DNA of 64,000 bases from Candidatus Gilichinskyi gelida (lineage in GTDB: Bacteria; Acidobacteriota; Thermoanaerobaculia; Gp7-AA8): positions 109,091 through 173,090 of the forward strand of contig JBBPII010000008.1 of assembly GCA_038040385.1 (NCBI GenBank), written 5' to 3'. Positions 652-62,634 of this stretch are shown piece by piece (the stretch's first letter is position 1; every line of letters starts with the position of its first letter). The position numbers and the translations under genes were made by a program. The notes under the pieces are model-generated. The model did no database searches, was not told where the DNA came from, and was given only the letters and a program-made list of their open reading frames with translations.

Positions 652-2695
652 TTACGTCTTCGAGCTCCTTCTGGAGGAGATCCCCGCCTGGATGCACGAC
701 ACCGCGCAGGCGACGCTGCAGCAGCAGTTCGCGCGCGTGATGCAGGAGATCGGCGCAACCGTGGCGCCGATCGTCAACAGCACGCCGCGGCGTCTGATCG
801 TCTACCTGCCGGAGCTTCCTGCCGGCGAAGCGGATCGCGACGAAGAGGTCAAAGGCCCGCCGGTCAAGGCGGCGTACGACTCCGAAGGCAAGCCAACGCC
901 GGCGCTCAACGGATTTCTGAAAAAGAACAGCGCGTCGCTCGACGACGTGATCCCCGGCGGCGATTACATCCGCGTCCGCCGCAAGATCAAGGGCCGCGCC
1001 ACGGGCGAGATCCTCCAGCAGCGCGTGCCGCAGATCTTCGAGTCGCTGCGCTGGCCGAAGATGATGCGCTGGGGCGCCGGCGAGCATTCGTACATCCGCC
1101 CCATTCACTCGATCGTCTCGACGCTCGACGGCGTGCACCTGCCGCTCGCCATCTTCGGCGTCGCCTCCGGCACCACGACGGTCGGCCATCGCACGCTTTC
1201 TCCGAAGCCGATCGAGGTCACCTCGTACAACGACTACGTCACGCAGCTCGAGCTGGGGCGGGTGGTCATCGACGCCATGCGCCGCCGCCACGTGATGGCC
1301 GAGCGGGCGCGCATCCTGGCCGCGCAGGTGCGCGGCACGCCGTCGGTCGACGCCTCGATCTGGTCGCAGTGGCAGTACCTGACCGAATACCCCGGTGTGG
1401 TGCGCGCGGAGTTCCGGCCTGAGTACCTGGCCATCCCCGAGGAAGTGCTGGTCACGGTGATGCGCGTGCATCAGAAGCAGCTTCCGATCCGCGACGCGAA
1501 CGAGAAGCTGACCAACTCATTCCTCGCGGTGCTCGACAACGACAGCGATCCCGACGGCAACGCCTGCTACGGCAACGCCTTCGTCACCAACGCCCGCTTC
1601 GCCGACGCGAAGTTCTTCTACGAGACCGATCGCCGCCGTCCGCTGGCCGACCGCGTCGAGCAGCTCGAGCACCTGCAGTTCCACGAGAAGCTGGGCAACT
1701 ACCGCGAGAAGACCGAGCGCATTATCTCGATCGTAGAAAAAATGGGTGGTGATCGCCGAGCGGCGCAGCTCTGCAAGGCAGATCTCGTCACCGAAATGGT
1801 CAAGGAGTTCACCGACCTTCAGGGAAAGATCGGCGGCATCTACGCCCGCGAGGAAGGCCAGCCGGACGAGGTCTGGCAGGCGATCTACGACCACTACCTG
1901 CCGGTCAACGCCGACGACCCGCTGCCGCGCACCGTGTCGGGAGCGATGGTCTCGCTCGCCGACCGCTTCGACACGCTGGTGGGCTTTTTCCGCATCGGGG
2001 CGAAACCGACCGGGTCGAAGGATCCGTTCGCCCTGCGGCGGGCGGCGCAGGGGGCAGTGCAAATCCTGCTCGACCGCTACAAACTCGGCATTGATTCTGG
2101 GATCGAACCGTTGATCGACTACGCGCAGGACGCACACGACTGTTACACCGTAAAAGCGGACCTGCTTGAGTTCTTTGCCGAACGTGTCCGTACTCTGCTC
2201 GAAGGGTCACGATTCGGCTTTGCGTATGACGAAATATCCGCTGCGATGACAACAACAGAAACGAGATGGTCACGATCACTCCATGATCTCGTCAAACGAA
2301 TCGAGGCGTTGAAGGCGATCCGCAACGAGACAAACTTTCTCTCGATTCTCGACTCGGCGAAGCGCATTCAAAACATCACGGCCGGCCATGAGTCGACGTT
2401 CGTCGACCCCGCCAGACTGGAAAACGATTTCGAGCGGCACTTGAATGAGCGGGCGACCGTCGTGGGCGCGCAGATCGAAGAAATGTTCCATATGCGCGAG
2501 TACCGCCTCGCGCTCGAGTCGTTCGCTACGCTGGCGCCGGAGCTGGAGACCTTCTTCAAGGAAGTCATGGTCATGGTCGACAACGAGGGCGTGCGCCGCA
2601 ACCGGATGTCGCTGCTGCGCAAGATCGGCAACGCGGTGATGAAGATCGCCGACGTGACCAAGATCGTCGTCGACCGCTCCGAGTACCGGGCGTGA
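644..2695 (+). CDS. glyS: Glycyl-tRNA synthetase beta subunit
   Basis: 683-aa ORF overlapping the glyQ stop by 8 nt. Its length and position directly after glyQ match the heterotetrameric GlyRS operon layout. Confidence 0.88.
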
Positions 2696-3895: not shown

Positions 3896-6628
<2,733 letters not shown>

Positions 6629-17187: not shown

Positions 17188-19170
17188 ATGCCGAGAAAGC
17201 GCCGCGTCGTCGGCACCGCCGGCCACATCGACCACGGCAAGACCGCGCTGGTGAAGGCGCTCACCGGCGTGGACACCGACCGCCTCCCCGAGGAGAAGCG
17301 GCGCGGCATCACCATCGACCTGGGGTTCGCGAGCTGGTTCACCGACGACTACCAGATCGGCTTCATCGACGTCCCCGGCCACGAGCGCTTCGTCAAGAAC
17401 ATGCTCGCGGGGGTGGGGGGGATCGACAGCGCGCTGTTGGTCGTCGCCGCCGACGAGTCGATCAAGCCGCAGACGCGCGAACACTTCGACATCTGCAAGC
17501 TCCTCGGCATCCGCACCGGTGTCGTGGCCATCACCAAGAGCGATCTGGTCGACCCCGACATCATCGACCTGGTGCGCCTCGAGATCGACGAGCTCGTGGC
17601 CGGCAGTTTCCTGGCCGGAAAGCCGATCGTGCCGGTATCGAGCGTGACCGGCGCGGGCCTCGACGTCCTGCGCGCGGCGATCGTGAAGTCGGTGTCCGAG
17701 GTCGACGATCGCGACGGCACCACGCGCGTGTTCCGCCTGCCGATCGATCGCGTCTTCACCATGAAGGGCTTCGGCTCGGTGATCACCGGGACGACCTTCG
17801 CCGGGCGGCTGAATGTCGAGAGCGACGTGGAAACGCTGCCCGGCGGCGACCGCAGCCGTGCGCGCAACATTCAGGTGCACGGTGAAGCGCGCGAGCTCGC
17901 GTCGGCCGGCGAGCGGACGTCGGTCAATCTGCCGGACATCCCGCTCGAGCGACTGCACCGCGGGCAGCAGCTCGTCGCGCCGAACACGCTGCGTACGTCG
18001 CAGGTCATCACCGTGAAACTCGATCTCTTGAAGACGGCGAAGCCGCTGAAGGAACAGACGCGCATCCGCTTTCATCACCTCGCCGCGGAATTGCTCGGAA
18101 GCGTGCGCTTCGTCGACCAGACGGTGGAGCTGAAGCCGGGGGGGAGCGCATTCGCCCAGGTGCGGCTCGAGTCGCCGGTGGTCGCCGCCGCGGGCGACCG
18201 ATTCGTCGTCCGCCGCTACTCGCCGGCCATCACCGTCGGCGGCGGCGTGATCCTCGACGCGCACCTGCCGAAGCTGAGCCGCGCCACGCGGCCGGAGCTG
18301 CTCGACGTCCTCGCCGGCGGCACGCTGCCGCAGCGCGTCGAGCTGATGGCGAAACTGGAGGGGCTGCGCGGGCTCACCGTTCACGAGGTTCAGGCGCGGA
18401 CGGGAATCCGCGTCGAGACGCTGACGAAGGAGCTCAAGCCCTCACCCCGCGCTTCGCGCCACCCTCTCCCGCAAGCGGGAGAGGGGGAAAACCAGCGCCC
18501 CTCTCCCGCCGCAGCGGGAGAGGGTCCGCGAAGCGGGGGTGAGGGTCTCGTCGACACCGGCAACCTCCGGTGGATCCACGTTGACGTCCTCGCCGACTTC
18601 CGGCGCCGCGCCATGGAGTTCCTGCAGGCGTACTTCCGCGACAACCGCATGGCGATGAACGTCCCGAAGGGGGAGTTCGTGCAGAAGCTCCTGCCGCACG
18701 GCGCGGACGGGCAGCTCGTGAACTTCCTCCTGCAGGACCTGGCGCGCGAGAAGATCGTGGTCATGGAGGGCGACGCGCTCGACGTCCCCGGCCGCTCAAA
18801 GAAGCTGGGCGGCGCGGAGGGGGAGCTGGCGCGCTCGATCGAGCAGCGCTTCGCCGAGGCCGGCCTGCAGCCGCCGCCGGTCTCCGAACTGATCAACGAG
18901 CGGACGCAGAAAGCGAAGATCATCGAGGGCGTGGTCGGCTTCCTGGTGAAGCAAGGGACGCTGGTTCGCCTCGCCGAGGGGCTTTACGTGCACCGCGACG
19001 CGCTGGCGGGCGCGCGCGAGCGGATGACGTCGCGCAAGGGCGAGACGATCGACGTCGGCCAGTTCAAGGAGTTCTTCGGCCTGTCGCGGAAGGTGGCCAT
19101 CCCGCTGCTGGAGTGGTTCGATCGAGAGGGGGTCACGAAGCGGGTCGGGGACGCGCGGCGGGTTCTTTGA
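17188..19170 (+). CDS. selB: Selenocysteine-specific translation elongation factor SelB carrying an in-frame ~36-aa insertion
   Basis: G-domain motifs (GHIDHGKTAL, DVPGHERF, TKSD) plus an extended C-terminal winged-helix region. 660 aa against the usual ~615–640. Confidence 0.88.
   Translation: MPRKRRVVGTAGHIDHGKTALVKALTGVDTDRLPEEKRRGITIDLGFASWFTDDYQIGFIDVPGHERFVKNMLAGVGGIDSALLVVAADESIKPQTREHFDICKLLGIRTGVVAITKSDLVDPDIIDLVRLEIDELVAGSFLAGKPIVPVSSVTGAGLDVLRAAIVKSVSEVDDRDGTTRVFRLPIDRVFTMKGFGSVITGTTFAGRLNVESDVETLPGGDRSRARNIQVHGEARELASAGERTSVNLPDIPLERLHRGQQLVAPNTLRTSQVITVKLDLLKTAKPLKEQTRIRFHHLAAELLGSVRFVDQTVELKPGGSAFAQVRLESPVVAAAGDRFVVRRYSPAITVGGGVILDAHLPKLSRATRPELLDVLAGGTLPQRVELMAKLEGLRGLTVHEVQARTGIRVETLTKELKPSPRASRHPLPQAGEGENQRPSPAAAGEGPRSGGEGLVDTGNLRWIHVDVLADFRRRAMEFLQAYFRDNRMAMNVPKGEFVQKLLPHGADGQLVNFLLQDLAREKIVVMEGDALDVPGRSKKLGGAEGELARSIEQRFAEAGLQPPPVSELINERTQKAKIIEGVVGFLVKQGTLVRLAEGLYVHRDALAGARERMTSRKGETIDVGQFKEFFGLSRKVAIPLLEWFDREGVTKRVGDARRVL
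18439..18545. repeat. Nested palindromic element (outer inverted repeat enclosing two tandem CCCTCTCCCGC/GCGGGAGAGGG hairpins) inside the selB CDS
   Basis: Outer arms are CCCTCACCCCGCGCTTCGCG and CGCGAAGCGGGGGTGAGGG. Inner hairpins lie at 18462-18485 and 18499-18524. The total length is a multiple of 3 and encodes PSPRASRHPLPQAGEGENQRPSPAAAGEGPRSGGEG. Confidence 0.8.
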
Positions 19171-23908: not shown

Positions 23909-24443
23909 ATGCGCAAAAATCCTACTCACGCTTTTTTTCGTCTCCATCTCATCCGTCCCCCACGCTCTCGCCGACGGCTGGAGTGTCGGCGCCGGCACCG
24001 GACCCTTCGTCTTCGGCTACGTCGCCGAGCGCAGCACGCGCATCGTCACCGACGGCGGCCAGAGCACCAGCCGCACCCGCCTCTCCGCGGCCACCCGTCC
24101 GGGTGGCGCCGCCGACGTGGAGCGCAGACTCAAGACTGGCTCGCCGTCCGCCTCGACGCCTCCTGGACCCGCGCGCCGATGAAGGTCAAGCGACGACGAC
24201 AGCGGAATCAGCTTCGACGCCGGCCACGCCAACGTCACCACCTTCGCCCTGCCGTTGGTCGTGAGGCTGAACCGCCACGGCGCCTTCCGCTTCCACCTCG
24301 CTGCCGGCCCGGCGTACACCTTCTACACGATGAAGGGGCGGGCGGGTGGCGGTGCGACGCTGGCTCTCTTCGACGGCACGCGCGGGAGATGGGGCGGCGC
24401 GGCGCCACCACTGATCCCGTCGCTTCGCGACGGGATAAACTGA
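23909..24443 (+). pseudogene. Frameshifted outer-membrane beta-barrel (OmpW/OmpA-TM-like) gene
   Basis: ATG at 23909 precedes a CAAAAATCC homopolymer. Removing one A restores MRKILLTLFFVSISSVPHALA|DGWSVGAGTGPFVFGYVAE..., which is a signal peptide followed by beta-strand dyads. It stops at 24167. A further frame continues ...DDDSGISFDAGHANVTTFALPLVVRLNRHGAFRFHLAAGPAYTFY.... That makes at least two frame changes. GC is lower upstream. Confidence 0.45.
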
Positions 24444-35964: not shown

Positions 35965-36615
35965 TTACGATTCCGCGGGCCGCCACGCCAGGAACCACGG
36001 CTCGCGCCGCCCGAACTTCGTCGCCAGCGCTGTGCCGACGCCGAAGACCGACATCAGCGCCCAAACGATGGTGCCGACCACCGGGATCAGCCGGATCGCG
36101 CCGAGGATCAGAACGCCGACGACCACCATGGCCAGGTCGCCGCGCAGCCAGCGACGGCGCTCCAGCGCCTGGCGCGAGCGCGCGCCGGCGATGACCGTGC
36201 CGAGGGCGTGGAAGACGGCGATGGCGCCGTAGATCTTGGTCACGATGGCGAAGACCGCGAGCGCGATCAGCAGCGGCACGCCGATCACCGACGGGAAGTA
36301 GCTGAAGACGATCGCCGTCAAGACAAAGCTGGTGATGGCCACCAGGCCGAGGGCGAAGCAGTGCAGCGCGCTGGCGCGCAACTCGACCGACGAGTAACGC
36401 ACTTCGCGCGCGCTCATCAGCGTCACCACCACCGCGGCGATGAGCCAGACGAACAGCAGCGACAGGATGACCGCGGTGCGCTGCAACATGGCCAGGCCGC
36501 CGGCGAGGGTGAAGTCGGATGGGCGGACGTCCAGCGCGGCGGGCGTAGCGATGCTCGCCGTCACCAGCATCGCGGCGCCGATCGCCAGGACCAGAAGGCC
36601 GCGCCCCCTAGCCAT
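35965..36615 (-). CDS. Hypothetical polytopic membrane protein
   Basis: 216 aa with 5–6 predicted TM helices, immediately downstream of the anti-sigma gene with a 4-nt overlap. Confidence 0.5.
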   Translation of the reverse strand: MARGRGLLVLAIGAAMLVTASIATPAALDVRPSDFTLAGGLAMLQRTAVILSLLFVWLIAAVVVTLMSAREVRYSSVELRASALHCFALGLVAITSFVLTAIVFSYFPSVIGVPLLIALAVFAIVTKIYGAIAVFHALGTVIAGARSRQALERRRWLRGDLAMVVVGVLILGAIRLIPVVGTIVWALMSVFGVGTALATKFGRREPWFLAWRPAES

Positions 36616-37623: not shown

Positions 37624-37684
37624 CCGGTCTTTACGGCTCCATTTCGGAAAGGTTTTCCGCCGCGCGGATGATACCTTTGCCGGT

Positions 37685-37784
37685 GTCATCCCGAGCCGCG
37701 AAGACGGCGAGGGATCCCCCGCCTACGGAGCGATCCGTTTCACACTGCGGGGGATCCCTCGCGCTCTTCGGCGCTCGGGATGAC
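37685..37784. repeat. REP/MITE-like palindromic element, divergent copy E
   Basis: GTCATCCCGAGCCGCGAAGACGGCGAGGGATCCCCC, a 28-nt loop, then GGGGGATCCCTCGCGCTCTTCGGCGCTCGGGATGAC. Sits between the divergent sigma and ABC genes. Confidence 0.75.
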
Positions 37785-37796
37785 ACGGCCACGCTC

Positions 37797-38513
37797 ATGA
37801 TCGAAGTCCGAAATCTCACAAAGAAATACGGGGAGTTCACGGCGGTCGACGAGGTCTCGCTGGAGGTCCGCCGCGGCGAGATTTTCGGCTTCCTCGGCCC
37901 CAACGGCGCGGGCAAGACCACCACCATCCGCATTCTCGCCGGGCTCTCGCTGCCGACCTCGGGCGAGGTGCGCATCGACGGCCTCGACGTGGTCAAGGAG
38001 GGCCTCCGGATCAAGGCCATGACCGGCTACGTCCCCGACCGCCCCTTCCTCTACGAGAAGCTGACCGGCCGCGAGCTGCTGCAGTTCGTGGCCAATCTCT
38101 ACCGCCGGGAGTGGCCGGACTGCGAAGCGCGGGCGATGGAGTTGCTGCGCTATTTCGACATCGAGCAGTGGGCCGACGCGCGGATCGAGAACCTCTCGCA
38201 CGGAATGAAGCAGAAGCTCGTGCTCGTCTCCGCTTTGGTGCACGACCCCGCGCTGCTGATCATCGACGAGCCGATGGTCGGCCTCGACGCGCTGGCGCAG
38301 AAGCAGGTGAAGCTGCTCATGCGCCGCCTGGCCGAGGAGAAGAAGACGGTGTTCCTGACCACGCACACGCTCTCGGTGGCCGAGGCGGTCTGCGACCGGA
38401 TCGCCATCATCAACCACGGACGGATCGTCGCCAGCGGCACGACCGCGGAGTTGAAGAGCGATCGGGCGCTGGAAGAGGTGTTCCTGGAGCTGACGTACCC
38501 AACGTCATCCTGA
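37797..38513 (+). CDS. ABC transporter ATP-binding protein with no adjacent permease
   Basis: Walker A GPNGAGKTT, signature LSHGMKQKL, Walker B LLIIDEP. Its last codons plus stop (..YPTSS*) lie inside REP copy B. Confidence 0.85.
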   Translation: MIEVRNLTKKYGEFTAVDEVSLEVRRGEIFGFLGPNGAGKTTTIRILAGLSLPTSGEVRIDGLDVVKEGLRIKAMTGYVPDRPFLYEKLTGRELLQFVANLYRREWPDCEARAMELLRYFDIEQWADARIENLSHGMKQKLVLVSALVHDPALLIIDEPMVGLDALAQKQVKLLMRRLAEEKKTVFLTTHTLSVAEAVCDRIAIINHGRIVASGTTAELKSDRALEEVFLELTYPTSS

Positions 38514-38580
38514 GCCGCGCAGACGGCGAAGGATCTCCGCGGCTGAGATCCTTCGCCGCGCTTCGCCGGCTCAGGATGAC
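38504..38580. repeat. REP/MITE-like palindromic element, copy B
   Basis: Left arm identical to copy A; right arm GAGATCCTTCGCCGCGCTTCGCCGGCTCAGGATGAC. Contains the ABC stop (TGA at 38511-38513) and the prmC ATG (38576-38578). Confidence 0.85.
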
Positions 38581-39379
38581 GCTCGAGACGATCGCTGATT
38601 TGCGCGCGAAGCTACGCGGCCTGATCGACCCTCGCGACGCCGACCTCCTCATCGCCGACGCCGCCGGCCGCACCCGCGCCTGGGTGCTCGCGCACGGCGA
38701 CGAGTTGATCGACGCCGCGCCCATCGAGGCGCTCGCCGCGCGGCGCGCCGCGGGCGAGCCGCTGCAGTACATCCGCGGGCGCTGCGACTTTTTCGGCCGC
38801 GAGTTCCTGGTCGACGACCGGGTGCTGATTCCGCGGCCGGAGACGGAACTGCTGGTGGAGACGGCGATCATGCGCGCGCCGCGCGGGGCGCGGGTGGTGG
38901 ACGTCGGCGCCGGCAGCGGCTGCGTGGCCATCTCGCTGGAGCGGGCGCGGACGGACTTGAAGGTCGTCGCCGTGGATGTCTCCATCGGCGCGCTGGCGGT
39001 GGCGGCGCGCAACGCCCGCGCGCACAAGTCGCGCGCGCGCTTCGCCGCGTCCGACCTCCTCGGCTCGCTTCGCGGCGCGTTCGACGTCATCGTCTCCAAC
39101 CCCCCCTACATCGCCGGCAGCGACGTCGCCGGCCTGCAGGTGGAGGTCCGCGATCACGAGCCGCGCGCCGCCCTCACGCCCGGCCCGCGCGGAACGGAGA
39201 TCATCGAGCGCATCTACGACGCCGCGGGAGCGGCTATGGTCATCCTGGAGATCGGTTTCGGGCAGGAGCGGGCCGTGCGCGAGGCCGCGGCGGCGCGCGG
39301 ATTCACGGTCGAGGAGGTGCGCAACGACCTCGCCGGCATTCCGCGCGTCGTCGTATCATCGCCCCATGGTCGGCAATGA
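38576..39379 (+). CDS. prmC: Release-factor glutamine methyltransferase (HemK)
   Basis: NPPY motif (VSNPPYIAG), a SAM-binding VVDVGAGSGCVAIS motif, and N-terminal similarity to PrmC. 267 aa. Confidence 0.85.
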   Translation: MTLETIADLRAKLRGLIDPRDADLLIADAAGRTRAWVLAHGDELIDAAPIEALAARRAAGEPLQYIRGRCDFFGREFLVDDRVLIPRPETELLVETAIMRAPRGARVVDVGAGSGCVAISLERARTDLKVVAVDVSIGALAVAARNARAHKSRARFAASDLLGSLRGAFDVIVSNPPYIAGSDVAGLQVEVRDHEPRAALTPGPRGTEIIERIYDAAGAAMVILEIGFGQERAVREAAAARGFTVEEVRNDLAGIPRVVVSSPHGRQ

Positions 39380-62575: not shown

Positions 62576-62626
62576 AGTTGTCAGTTGTCGGTTGTCAGTT
62601 GTCGACAACCGATAACCGACAACTGA
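62576..62626. repeat. Tandem-heptamer palindrome, GTTGNC family, copy H3 (terminator-like, after glmS)
   Basis: AGTTGTCAGTTGTCGGTTGTCAGTTGTCG / CGACAACCGATAACCGACAACTGA, 6 nt after the glmS stop. Confidence 0.8.
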
Positions 62627-62634
62627 GAACCTTC

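Follow-up and report, generated by a model that had tools for sequence, protein, structure and literature searches.

An inverted pair of BoxC/TM repeat units in frame within selB of an Acidobacteriota genome, and its apparent kinship with DUF559 endonuclease cassettes

In a 64,000-nucleotide stretch of Candidatus Gilichinskyi gelida (Acidobacteriota, Thermoanaerobaculia; contig JBBPII010000008.1, positions 109,091 to 173,090), hereafter the window, the gene selB for the selenocysteine-specific elongation factor is read straight through a strongly palindromic element of 107 bp. An earlier note, made from the sequence alone, had drawn attention to this element, which raises the question of what it is, how it came to lie inside a translation factor gene and whether SelB or its message makes use of it. 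The analysis presented here indicates that the element is very probably an inverted doublet of the BoxC/TM repeat, set in frame in selB, which the gene would simply tolerate and which, although free of an open reading frame of its own, would be related to cassettes carrying DUF559 endonuclease genes. The features concerned are as follows.

17188-19170, plus strand: selB, 660 amino acids, host of the insertion (open reading frame list and Pfam)
18439-18545, no strand: whole element, 107 bp, a reverse-forward (R-F) inverted doublet of BoxC/PIT/TM repeat units
18439-18458 and 18527-18545: outer arms CCCTCACCCCGCGCTTCGCG and CGCGAAGCGGGGGTGAGGG, matching at 19 of 20 positions
18462-18485: inner hairpin 1, CCCTCTCCCGC-AA-GCGGGAGAGGG, perfect 11-bp stem
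18499-18524: inner hairpin 2, CCCTCTCCCGC-CGCA-GCGGGAGAGGG, perfect 11-bp stem
18439-18485, minus strand: left unit, 47 nt, reverse orientation (block positions and unit parsing); on the plus strand it reads CCCTCACCC (18439-18447), mini-hairpin CGCGCTTCGCGCCA (18448-18461), CCCTCTCCC (18462-18470), loop GCAAGC (18471-18476) and GGGAGAGGG (18477-18485)
18486-18498, no strand: spacer between the units, 13 nt, GGAAAACCAGCGC (alignment of filled and empty alleles)
18499-18545, plus strand: right unit, 47 nt, forward orientation (block positions, parsing and DNA fold); it reads CCCTCTCCC (18499-18507), loop GCCGCAGC (18508-18515), GGGAGAGGG (18516-18524), loop 2 with mini-hairpin TCCGCGAAGCGG (18525-18536) and GGGTGAGGG (18537-18545)
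18439-18546, plus strand: extra coding stretch of 36 codons, SelB residues 418-453, peptide PSPRASRHPLPQAGEGENQRPSPAAAGEGPRSGGEG (protein and DNA alignments)

Read along the plus strand, the element (window 18439-18545) runs CCCTCACCCCGCGCTTCGCG-CCA-CCCTCTCCCGC-AA-GCGGGAGAGGG-GGAAAACCAGCGC-CCCTCTCCCGC-CGCA-GCGGGAGAGGG-TC-CGCGAAGCGGGGGTGAGGG, and the nested palindrome with two tandem hairpins inside selB is thus as the earlier note had described it. None of 100 dinucleotide-preserving shuffles of the window contained even one such hairpin. Folded as RNA, the element reached -99.3 kcal/mol (shuffle mean -57; z = -10.2), and as DNA both strands gave about -56 kcal/mol (z = -9.7 to -11.9). The outer arms enclosing the hairpins are likewise present in the sequence, but the organisation underneath is one of two inverted copies of a 47-nt unit, each built as CCCTCTCCC, a loop, GGGAGAGGG, a loop of 12-14 nt containing a GAA mini-hairpin, and GGGTGAGGG. 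In the DNA fold of the right unit, this gives an 11-bp hairpin followed by a 4-bp GAA mini-hairpin.

Judged from these blocks, the segment is an inverted pair of BoxC/PIT/TM-ECO units of a long-loop subtype. The three TM-ECO 9-mers CCCTCTCCC, GGGAGAGGG and GGGTGAGGG are exact in both window units when compared with Table 1 of Holder et al. 2015 (PMC4666352), and both carry the three consecutive blocks CCCTC(T/G)CCC, GGG(G)AGAGGG and GGGTGAGGG on one strand. The repeat was described as BoxC in the 1990s (Bachellier et al.), re-described as a 'potential intrastrand triplex' (PIT) element in 2000 (Hoyne & Maher) and again as the G/C-rich TM-ECO in 2015 (PMC4666352). Escherichia coli K-12 holds 23 TM-ECO copies with five inverted pairs, 'always located intergenically' and without a tie to transposons, phages or plasmids; the isolated strand forms a triplex in vitro, with none detectable in vivo, and the surroundings of the motif are unusually variable between strains, with local instability and partial deletions at the motifs themselves (Holder et al., PMC4666352). 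Kaplan et al. 2016 described the same groups as a 'G-quadruplex-hairpin-duplex switch', again only in intergenic positions (PMC5100583). The window element shares with the E. coli motif its three identical blocks, of which the first two form a hairpin, the frequent inverted pairing, the occurrence in diverse bacteria and the faster-changing neighbouring sequence. In contrast to the intergenic E. coli motif, it lies in frame in a conserved gene, and its loop 2 is a mini-hairpin, 12 nt long in the right unit (TCCGCGAAGCGG) and 14 nt long in the left (TGGCGCGAAGCGCG), compared with 3 nt (TTA or CCG) in E. coli, which places it outside the 1-6-nt loops of the ITxF definition (PMC4666352). Such a long loop 2 probably disfavours a compact triplex or quadruplex.

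A cross-phylum scan of one genome per species with the pattern GCGGGAGAGGG-N(0-20)-GGGTGAGGG found the composite signature in at least 118 stretches of species-representative genomes, so that the repeat is a family present in many other genomes and not unique to selB. The stretches listed come from Alpha-, Beta-, Gamma- and Deltaproteobacteria, Planctomycetes, Chloroflexi, Verrucomicrobia, Deinococcus, Elusimicrobia, a Melainabacteria-like lineage, Bacteroidota and Acidobacteriota. Among the matches listed, 141 units share the consensus; loop 2 measures 3 nt in 76 of them and 12-20 nt in 22, where it folds into a small hairpin of varying sequence but preserved pairing. Because these 22 units elsewhere have the long loop, it marks a subtype and not a non-member. 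The R-F arrangement of the window units with their 13-nt spacer also recurs, as 17 F-R and 12 R-F pairs were found elsewhere, R-F doublets with gaps of 14 nt upwards among them. The long second loops of this subtype (window 18448-18461 and 18525-18536; loci L015, L043, L108 and others) often hold GCGAAGC or close variants, which we take to be GNA-triloop DNA mini-hairpins of exceptional stability, and their stems vary between copies through compensated changes. In locus L093 (about 1550-2300, minus strand), five tandem 143-bp repeats contain one BoxC/TM unit each, about 2 kb from a tmRNA gene (3979-4333).

The boundaries of the insertion were set by comparing filled and empty alleles at the protein and DNA level, an alignment that the earlier note had called for. 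Among about 5.8 billion proteins searched, SelB orthologs came up in metagenome-assembled genomes of Thermoanaerobaculia (Acidobacteriota), nearly all of them 628 aa long compared with 660 aa in the window. In a protein alignment of 27 SelB orthologs, the insert block, rich in Pro, Gly and Glu as noted earlier and also in Arg, was found only in the window and in ortholog P0001 (38 residues, similar peptide), with a shorter segment, TGSLSREAGEGGRRPGEG, at the same place in P0003; the other differences in length come from extensions at the N or C terminus. P0001 and P0003 aside, the closest relative, P0002 (94-95% amino acid and 91.5% nucleotide identity), and every other ortholog listed read KEL-KNVPN-LSDSG without insert. 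In total the element is missing from P0002 and over 100 orthologs, and its place in selB is a feature of one sub-lineage of Thermoanaerobaculia. A protein search with the insert peptide plus four flanking residues on each side brought up neither further filled selB alleles nor other host proteins, no candidate having enough words in common with it. At the site of the element, the empty allele carries 12 nt, AACGTCCCGAAC, between AAG on the left and TCTC on the right. The 108 coding nucleotides take the place of these 12 (four codons, NVPN), a net gain of 96 nt or 32 residues instead of the roughly 36 first estimated. The frame is kept, as had been claimed, and is in use through the element without a stop codon; it is kept not by the 107 bp of the palindrome, which are no multiple of three, but by the 108-nt coding stretch.

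Independent assemblies of relatives carry a diverged form of the element (GCA_016853205.1 and a Logan assembly for P0001, ENA and JGI contigs for P0003), which excludes an assembly artefact. The DNA from these assemblies shows an identical right-hand junction in all three filled alleles, and common to them are also a Ser-to-Thr change just after the insert (DTG vs DSG) and the right spacer end (CAGCGC vs CAGGGT). The P0003 allele consists of a single unit; since it shares the right junction, DTG and right spacer end with the doublets, the sequence argues that it would derive from a doublet that lost its left unit. All indels inside the element are multiples of three, among them a 6-nt in-frame indel that makes the spacer 19 nt long in the P0001 locus (L001) vs 13 nt in the window. 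The empty alleles retain the ancestral KN(V/L)xN(L/V)(S/A)DSG and are therefore not excision products. Other small in-frame SelB indels were seen, SDKG in winged-helix 2 of P0003 (L004, about residues 510-513) and ASFG in domain III of P0119, neither of them repeat-like in protein. Upstream of selB, an IS110-family transposase gene (DEDD_Tnp_IS110; L001 7879-9243) occurs only in the P0001 genome and is absent from the syntenic L003, L004 and the window.

To place the insert in the protein, Pfam assignments (GTP_EFTU, residues 5-169; Beta-barrel_SelB, 281-362; SelB-wing_2, 477-531; SelB-wing_3, 617-658) were combined with an AlphaFold model of whole SelB built on a shallow alignment. Only the local secondary structure of its better C-terminal part was used (predicted local distance difference test score, pLDDT, of 60-88 in the winged-helix part), cross-checked by a family-profile alignment to ribosome-bound E. 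coli SelB (5lzb). The model places helices at residues 365-377, 380-394, 398-405 and 409-416 and a β-hairpin at 454-464, followed by the next domain, while residues 418-450 have a pLDDT below 50 and no secondary structure. The profile alignment to 5lzb is continuous and puts the insertion point at QQPG between RELL and YIQAG (about residues 397-401); single-sequence searches of the PDB did not cover winged-helix 1. The insert is thus predicted to form a surface loop from the last helix to the β-hairpin of winged-helix 1, inside that domain and not between domain III and the winged-helix region as had been expected. It lies between the following segments.

18412-18435, plus strand: codons of the last helix of winged-helix 1 (residues 409-416), directly upstream of the insertion (model and 5lzb profile alignment)
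18547-18579, plus strand: codons of the β-hairpin or 'wing' of winged-helix 1 (residues 454-464; strands 454-458 and 461-464), directly downstream (model); also the patch where the window departs most from its empty sister allele, P0002

Outside the insert, the ratio of nonsynonymous to synonymous substitution rates (dN/dS) is 0.10-0.18 for every pair of alleles, filled against filled included, and selB remains under purifying selection. Within the insert dN/dS is about 0.44, on only 32 codons, and the peptide is about 66% identical between alleles compared with about 90% for the rest of the protein (dN/dS 0.44 vs 0.12). Low dN/dS outside the insert, a higher value inside and indels in threes together indicate that the gene is maintained while the peptide is weakly constrained. 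The 36 residues, rich in Pro, Gly, Glu and Arg, are predicted to be unstructured, and their sequence is set by the nucleotide blocks of the repeat: CCCTCTCCC yields PSP and GGGAGAGGG yields GEG, the same as in unrelated host proteins.

Such hosts were found repeatedly, as at least six genes of other phyla, verified by Pfam, contain the repeat in frame with host domains on both sides of it.

L077, UDP-galactopyranose mutase: repeat inside the GLF domain
L075, CheA: repeat between Hpt and the dimerisation domain
L008, Mfd: repeat between the UvrB-interaction domain and D3
L022, lipoamide dehydrogenase (Lpd): repeat in the linker after the lipoyl domain
L070, PriA: whole repeat-DUF559-repeat cassette
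L007, MetRS: whole repeat-DUF559-repeat cassette

The GLF, CheA, Mfd and Lpd copies are single or double units without DUF559, in hosts from Bacteroidota and Betaproteobacteria. In-frame insertion of BoxC/TM units is a recurrent phenomenon, comparable in kind to the Rickettsia palindromic elements. A candidate STAND/TPR-like host (L096, taken without Pfam check) also has an in-frame BoxC/TM unit without DUF559.

In the other two hosts (L007, 1307-1794; L070, 2407-2839), two inverted units bracket a DUF559 domain of about 110 residues (E = 3e-30 and 4e-37, respectively) that is in frame with the host protein. In L070 the genome and the DUF559 gene are A+T-rich, yet the flanking units are canonical and G+C-rich, and the R-DUF559-F order of L070, L206 and L209 corresponds to the outer orientation of the window element. 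As an unbiased test of this association, 80 metagenomic DUF559 loci (L125-L204) were chosen by protein similarity alone. A complete unit was located within 200 bp of the DUF559 match in 36 of the 80, and on both sides in 13; unit density was 2.09 per kb near DUF559 compared with 0.04 per kb in the rest of the same loci, an enrichment of about 50-fold. The usual layout is forward unit, DUF559, reverse unit, the forward unit ending 6-50 nt before the match and the reverse unit starting 3-50 nt after it, and some loci (L172, L147) have an R-F doublet on each side. Four further in-frame whole cassettes were among these loci.

L170, MetRS: same linker as L007, in a host about 52% identical
L155, HrpA-like helicase
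L174, NTP-transferase: cassette splits a domain
L201, MmeI-type methyltransferase: cassette splits a domain

All cassette hosts show Pfam host domains on both sides of the insert and no intein or intron signatures. The association extends to E. coli K-12, where the DUF559 gene ycjD (NC_000913.3 1351204-1351760; L124) ends in ...RRSPSP*, with SPSP encoded by the CCCTCTCCC block, and TM-ECO #9 follows some 170 bp downstream. Of 5,426 complete E. coli genomes, 3,346 have the fabI-TM-ycjD-sapF stretch in full; in O157:H7 (L205, ECP19-198), homology stops about 45 nt before the repeat and gives way to a TetR/RND-efflux island, a break that fits the reported instability around the motifs. The literature searched, limited in coverage, contained no report linking DUF559 or ycjD to BoxC/PIT/TM repeats, nor one that tied the repeat to any other gene. 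DUF559 is placed in the Vsr clade of PD-(D/E)xK nucleases, which also includes a group I intron homing endonuclease (PMC3424549), and homing endonucleases of Vsr-like type have been described (Dassa et al. 2009, PMC2677866). Phages were considered as the main vehicle of DUF559, which found no support as the domain is rare in viral contigs (11 relatives).

Taken with these loci, the selB doublet appears to be a gene-less relative of the repeat-DUF559-repeat cassettes. A solitary R-F doublet could arise from a cassette by loss of the gene, for example through recombination between flanking doublets, or alternatively by mobilisation in trans. More tentatively, and with rather less confidence than an even chance would allow, we propose that BoxC/PIT/TM units are the terminal repeats of a widespread, putatively selfish DUF559 (Vsr-like) cassette that can lie in frame in housekeeping genes. 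On translation, the units would give flexible linkers of PSP...GEG type that make the insert tolerable to the host protein, and loss of the endonuclease gene would leave solo units and doublets such as the 23 E. coli copies and the one in selB.

Several observations weigh against the overall reading of the element. The window holds no DUF559 gene and no repeat copy besides this one locus, nor do the flanks of the four related loci contain further copies. No target-site duplication is present at the selB site, where 12 nt of target are gone instead, and a classical transposition footprint is therefore missing. The polymorphic fabI-ycjD-sapF region of E. coli offers neither a clean cassette boundary nor a clean empty site, 44 of the 80 DUF559 neighbourhoods are free of units, and DUF559 may have invaded doublets that were already in place. 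The whole-protein model behind the placement of the insert is poor overall (pLDDT 49.7). Finally, the filled alleles are non-monophyletic on the SelB tree: in neighbour-joining trees the window pairs with the empty P0002 and then with the filled P0001, while P0003 joins the empty P0004 and P0006, and trees of the N- and C-terminal halves are noisy and disagree in detail. The mini-hairpins of the filled alleles differ as well, each internally compensated (CCGC..GCGG, GCGC..GCGC and GGCC..GGCC). Identity between window and P0002 is 90-97% over the gene, yet it falls to 67-78% in the 60-90 nt beside the insert, a patch too short to tell recombination from locally accelerated change. One possible history is a single insertion carried between lineages by homologous recombination, with correction between the arms; repeated events at a hot spot are another.

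Two alternative explanations would give the insert a function in selB. The earlier note had suggested that a hairpin in this message might affect its own translation, and SelB is indeed an RNA-hairpin-binding protein; together with the extremely stable RNA fold, this would suit a regulatory RNA that slows or gates translation or acts as a SelB-bound mimic of the selenocysteine insertion sequence (SECIS) in autoregulation. We consider this very improbable. Bacterial SECIS hairpins have bulged-U and GU-loop features that are absent from the AA and CGCA loops and perfect G+C stems seen here. The hairpin does not follow directly 3' of an in-frame UGA, for there is no such codon and the frame stays open through the element. 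No Rfam family reached threshold for the element or six repeat-bearing loci, the sub-threshold hits being eukaryotic miRNA hairpin models only, which we take as generic hairpin similarity. Absence from the closest relative and more than 100 orthologs means that the element is not part of the conserved regulation of selB, while the same repeat also occurs in unrelated genes and intergenic DNA of many phyla, and earlier studies of PIT elements found neither promoter or terminator activity nor an effect on RNA polymerase (PMC4666352). An adaptive protein feature, such as a flexible linker or interaction loop in winged-helix 1 contacting ribosome or mRNA, might be seen in the frame and stop-free reading kept in three diverged alleles, in their indels of three and in the shared DTG. 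It too is improbable, if slightly less so: the frame would be enforced by selection on the downstream winged-helix domains needed for SECIS binding and not on the peptide, which evolves faster than the rest of SelB, has lost half its length in one allele, is predicted to be disordered and is dictated by repeat blocks as in unrelated hosts. The insert is accordingly best regarded as a tolerated passenger, neither a functional module of SelB nor a SECIS-related control element, a view that we infer with good support.

Two further alternatives concern where the units come from. That the palindrome arose locally, by duplication, inversion or chance G+C content, or is an assembly chimera that merely resembles known repeats, would agree with its single copy in 64 kb, but is next to inconceivable given 9-mer blocks that are identical in both units, in the alleles of relatives and in hundreds of units in other phyla, at least four independent assemblies with the element and the result of the shuffles. 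More serious, although we regard it as rather unlikely, is an independent repeat, generated by templated repair, slippage at non-B DNA or another enzyme, into which DUF559 inserts or beside which it is retained. Units outnumber DUF559 genes (23 vs one near-TM gene in E. coli K-12; PMC4666352), more than half of the sampled DUF559 loci lack a nearby unit, loss of 12 nt without duplication at selB fits break repair, and Holder et al. reported local instability and partial deletions at the motifs (PMC4666352). An independent repeat accounts poorly for the roughly 50-fold enrichment with regular spacing between unit and gene, for the G+C-rich units that bracket an A+T-rich DUF559 gene in the A+T-rich genome of L070 and for units and gene travelling together into the same frame of host genes. 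Spacing, composition and co-travel fit a single element better, though targeting of the repeat by DUF559 is possible.

If selB is viewed as the host of a tolerated, gene-less relative of the cassettes, several known systems offer comparisons. Rickettsia palindromic elements (Ogata et al. 2000, summarised in PMC10969869) are likewise short palindromic repeats without a transposase within, placed in frame in unrelated housekeeping genes, translated and tolerated. The likeness of the selB, GLF, CheA, Mfd, Lpd, PriA and MetRS insertions to them is one of functional analogy only, as those elements form an unrelated sequence family of one genus, set apart here by its described composition and taxon, with many copies per genome. 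Elements of that family are A+T-rich and about 100-150 bp long, and we know of no endonuclease gene associated with them. [quoted passage not shown] The bracketed gene of the BoxC/TM cassettes differs in being a DUF559/Vsr-like PD-(D/E)xK nuclease, neither the Y1 transposase of REPINs (RAYT tyrosine transposases) nor a DDE transposase, and REP units have a head of GTAG type that BoxC/TM units lack. In its terminal inverted repeats, small size and lack of a transposase the selB element resembles a MITE; the duplicated target site is missing, and candidates for a longer, autonomous counterpart would be the cassettes of L070, L206 and L209 with their like outer orientation, whose DUF559 is no known transposase.

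Homing endonucleases resemble the cassettes of the other genomes and not the window element, whose 36 residues contain no domain, Pfam finding only SelB domains in the host protein. The ShiLan element is an in-frame, non-splicing homing insertion in a phage methylase with a hidden HNH endonuclease (PMC11855218), and the Vsr-like clade includes proven homing enzymes (PMC2677866; I-Bth0305I clade, PMC3424549). The cassettes similarly place an endonuclease in frame without intein or intron signature. Different from these systems, the nuclease is in the frame of the host protein and bracketed by BoxC/TM units, the hosts are cellular housekeeping genes across phyla and not phage genes, and the window element has no nuclease.

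The window contains other palindromes as well. Copies of a different repeat family at 37678-37791 and 38494-38590 have arms with GTCATCC(C/T)GAGC (45-nt arms, 87% complementary), and between copies of this motif lies a perfect 14-bp hairpin, CGGCGAAGGATCTC...GAGATCCTTCGCCG (38524-38558). Hairpins with 10-bp stems of the form ATCCCG(N)4-loop-(N)4CGGGAT occur at window 24414-24436 and, in relatives, as two copies just 3' of the selB stop codon (L001 11987-12009 and 12059-12081; L004 11949-11971 and 12023-12045), and may be terminators or another small repeat family. A palindrome of tandem GTTGTC(A/G)GTTGTC units lies at 62577-62630 (30-nt arms, 90% complementary). The sole tRNA gene detected in the window (1-64000) is tRNA-Ser(GCT) at 36093-36177, and no tRNA-Sec lies beside selB there.

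Taken alone, the selB case is modest: a loop of 36 residues, encoded by the repeat, lies in a winged-helix domain of a conserved translation factor that remains under purifying selection. It serves mainly as an entry point to the in-frame BoxC/TM copies across phyla and to their link with DUF559. The repeat itself was already known; the analysis adds its in-frame position in genuine genes of several phyla and its tight association with DUF559. For annotation, PSP...GEG-type segments in proteins of G+C-rich bacteria may often be repeat insertions. The BoxC/PIT/triplex motif has been the subject of 25 years of biophysics without a mechanism of origin or mobility being assigned in the literature covered, and with the enrichment near DUF559, which includes ycjD, E. 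coli would allow a direct test of how the repeat arose and spread. The observations point to essential genes as hosts of a class of endonuclease cassettes that lie in frame and do not splice. If the proposed cassette origin is true, a repeat for which no origin or means of spread has been available since the 1990s would gain both, and a non-splicing, intein-like mode of inserting domains into proteins would be defined.

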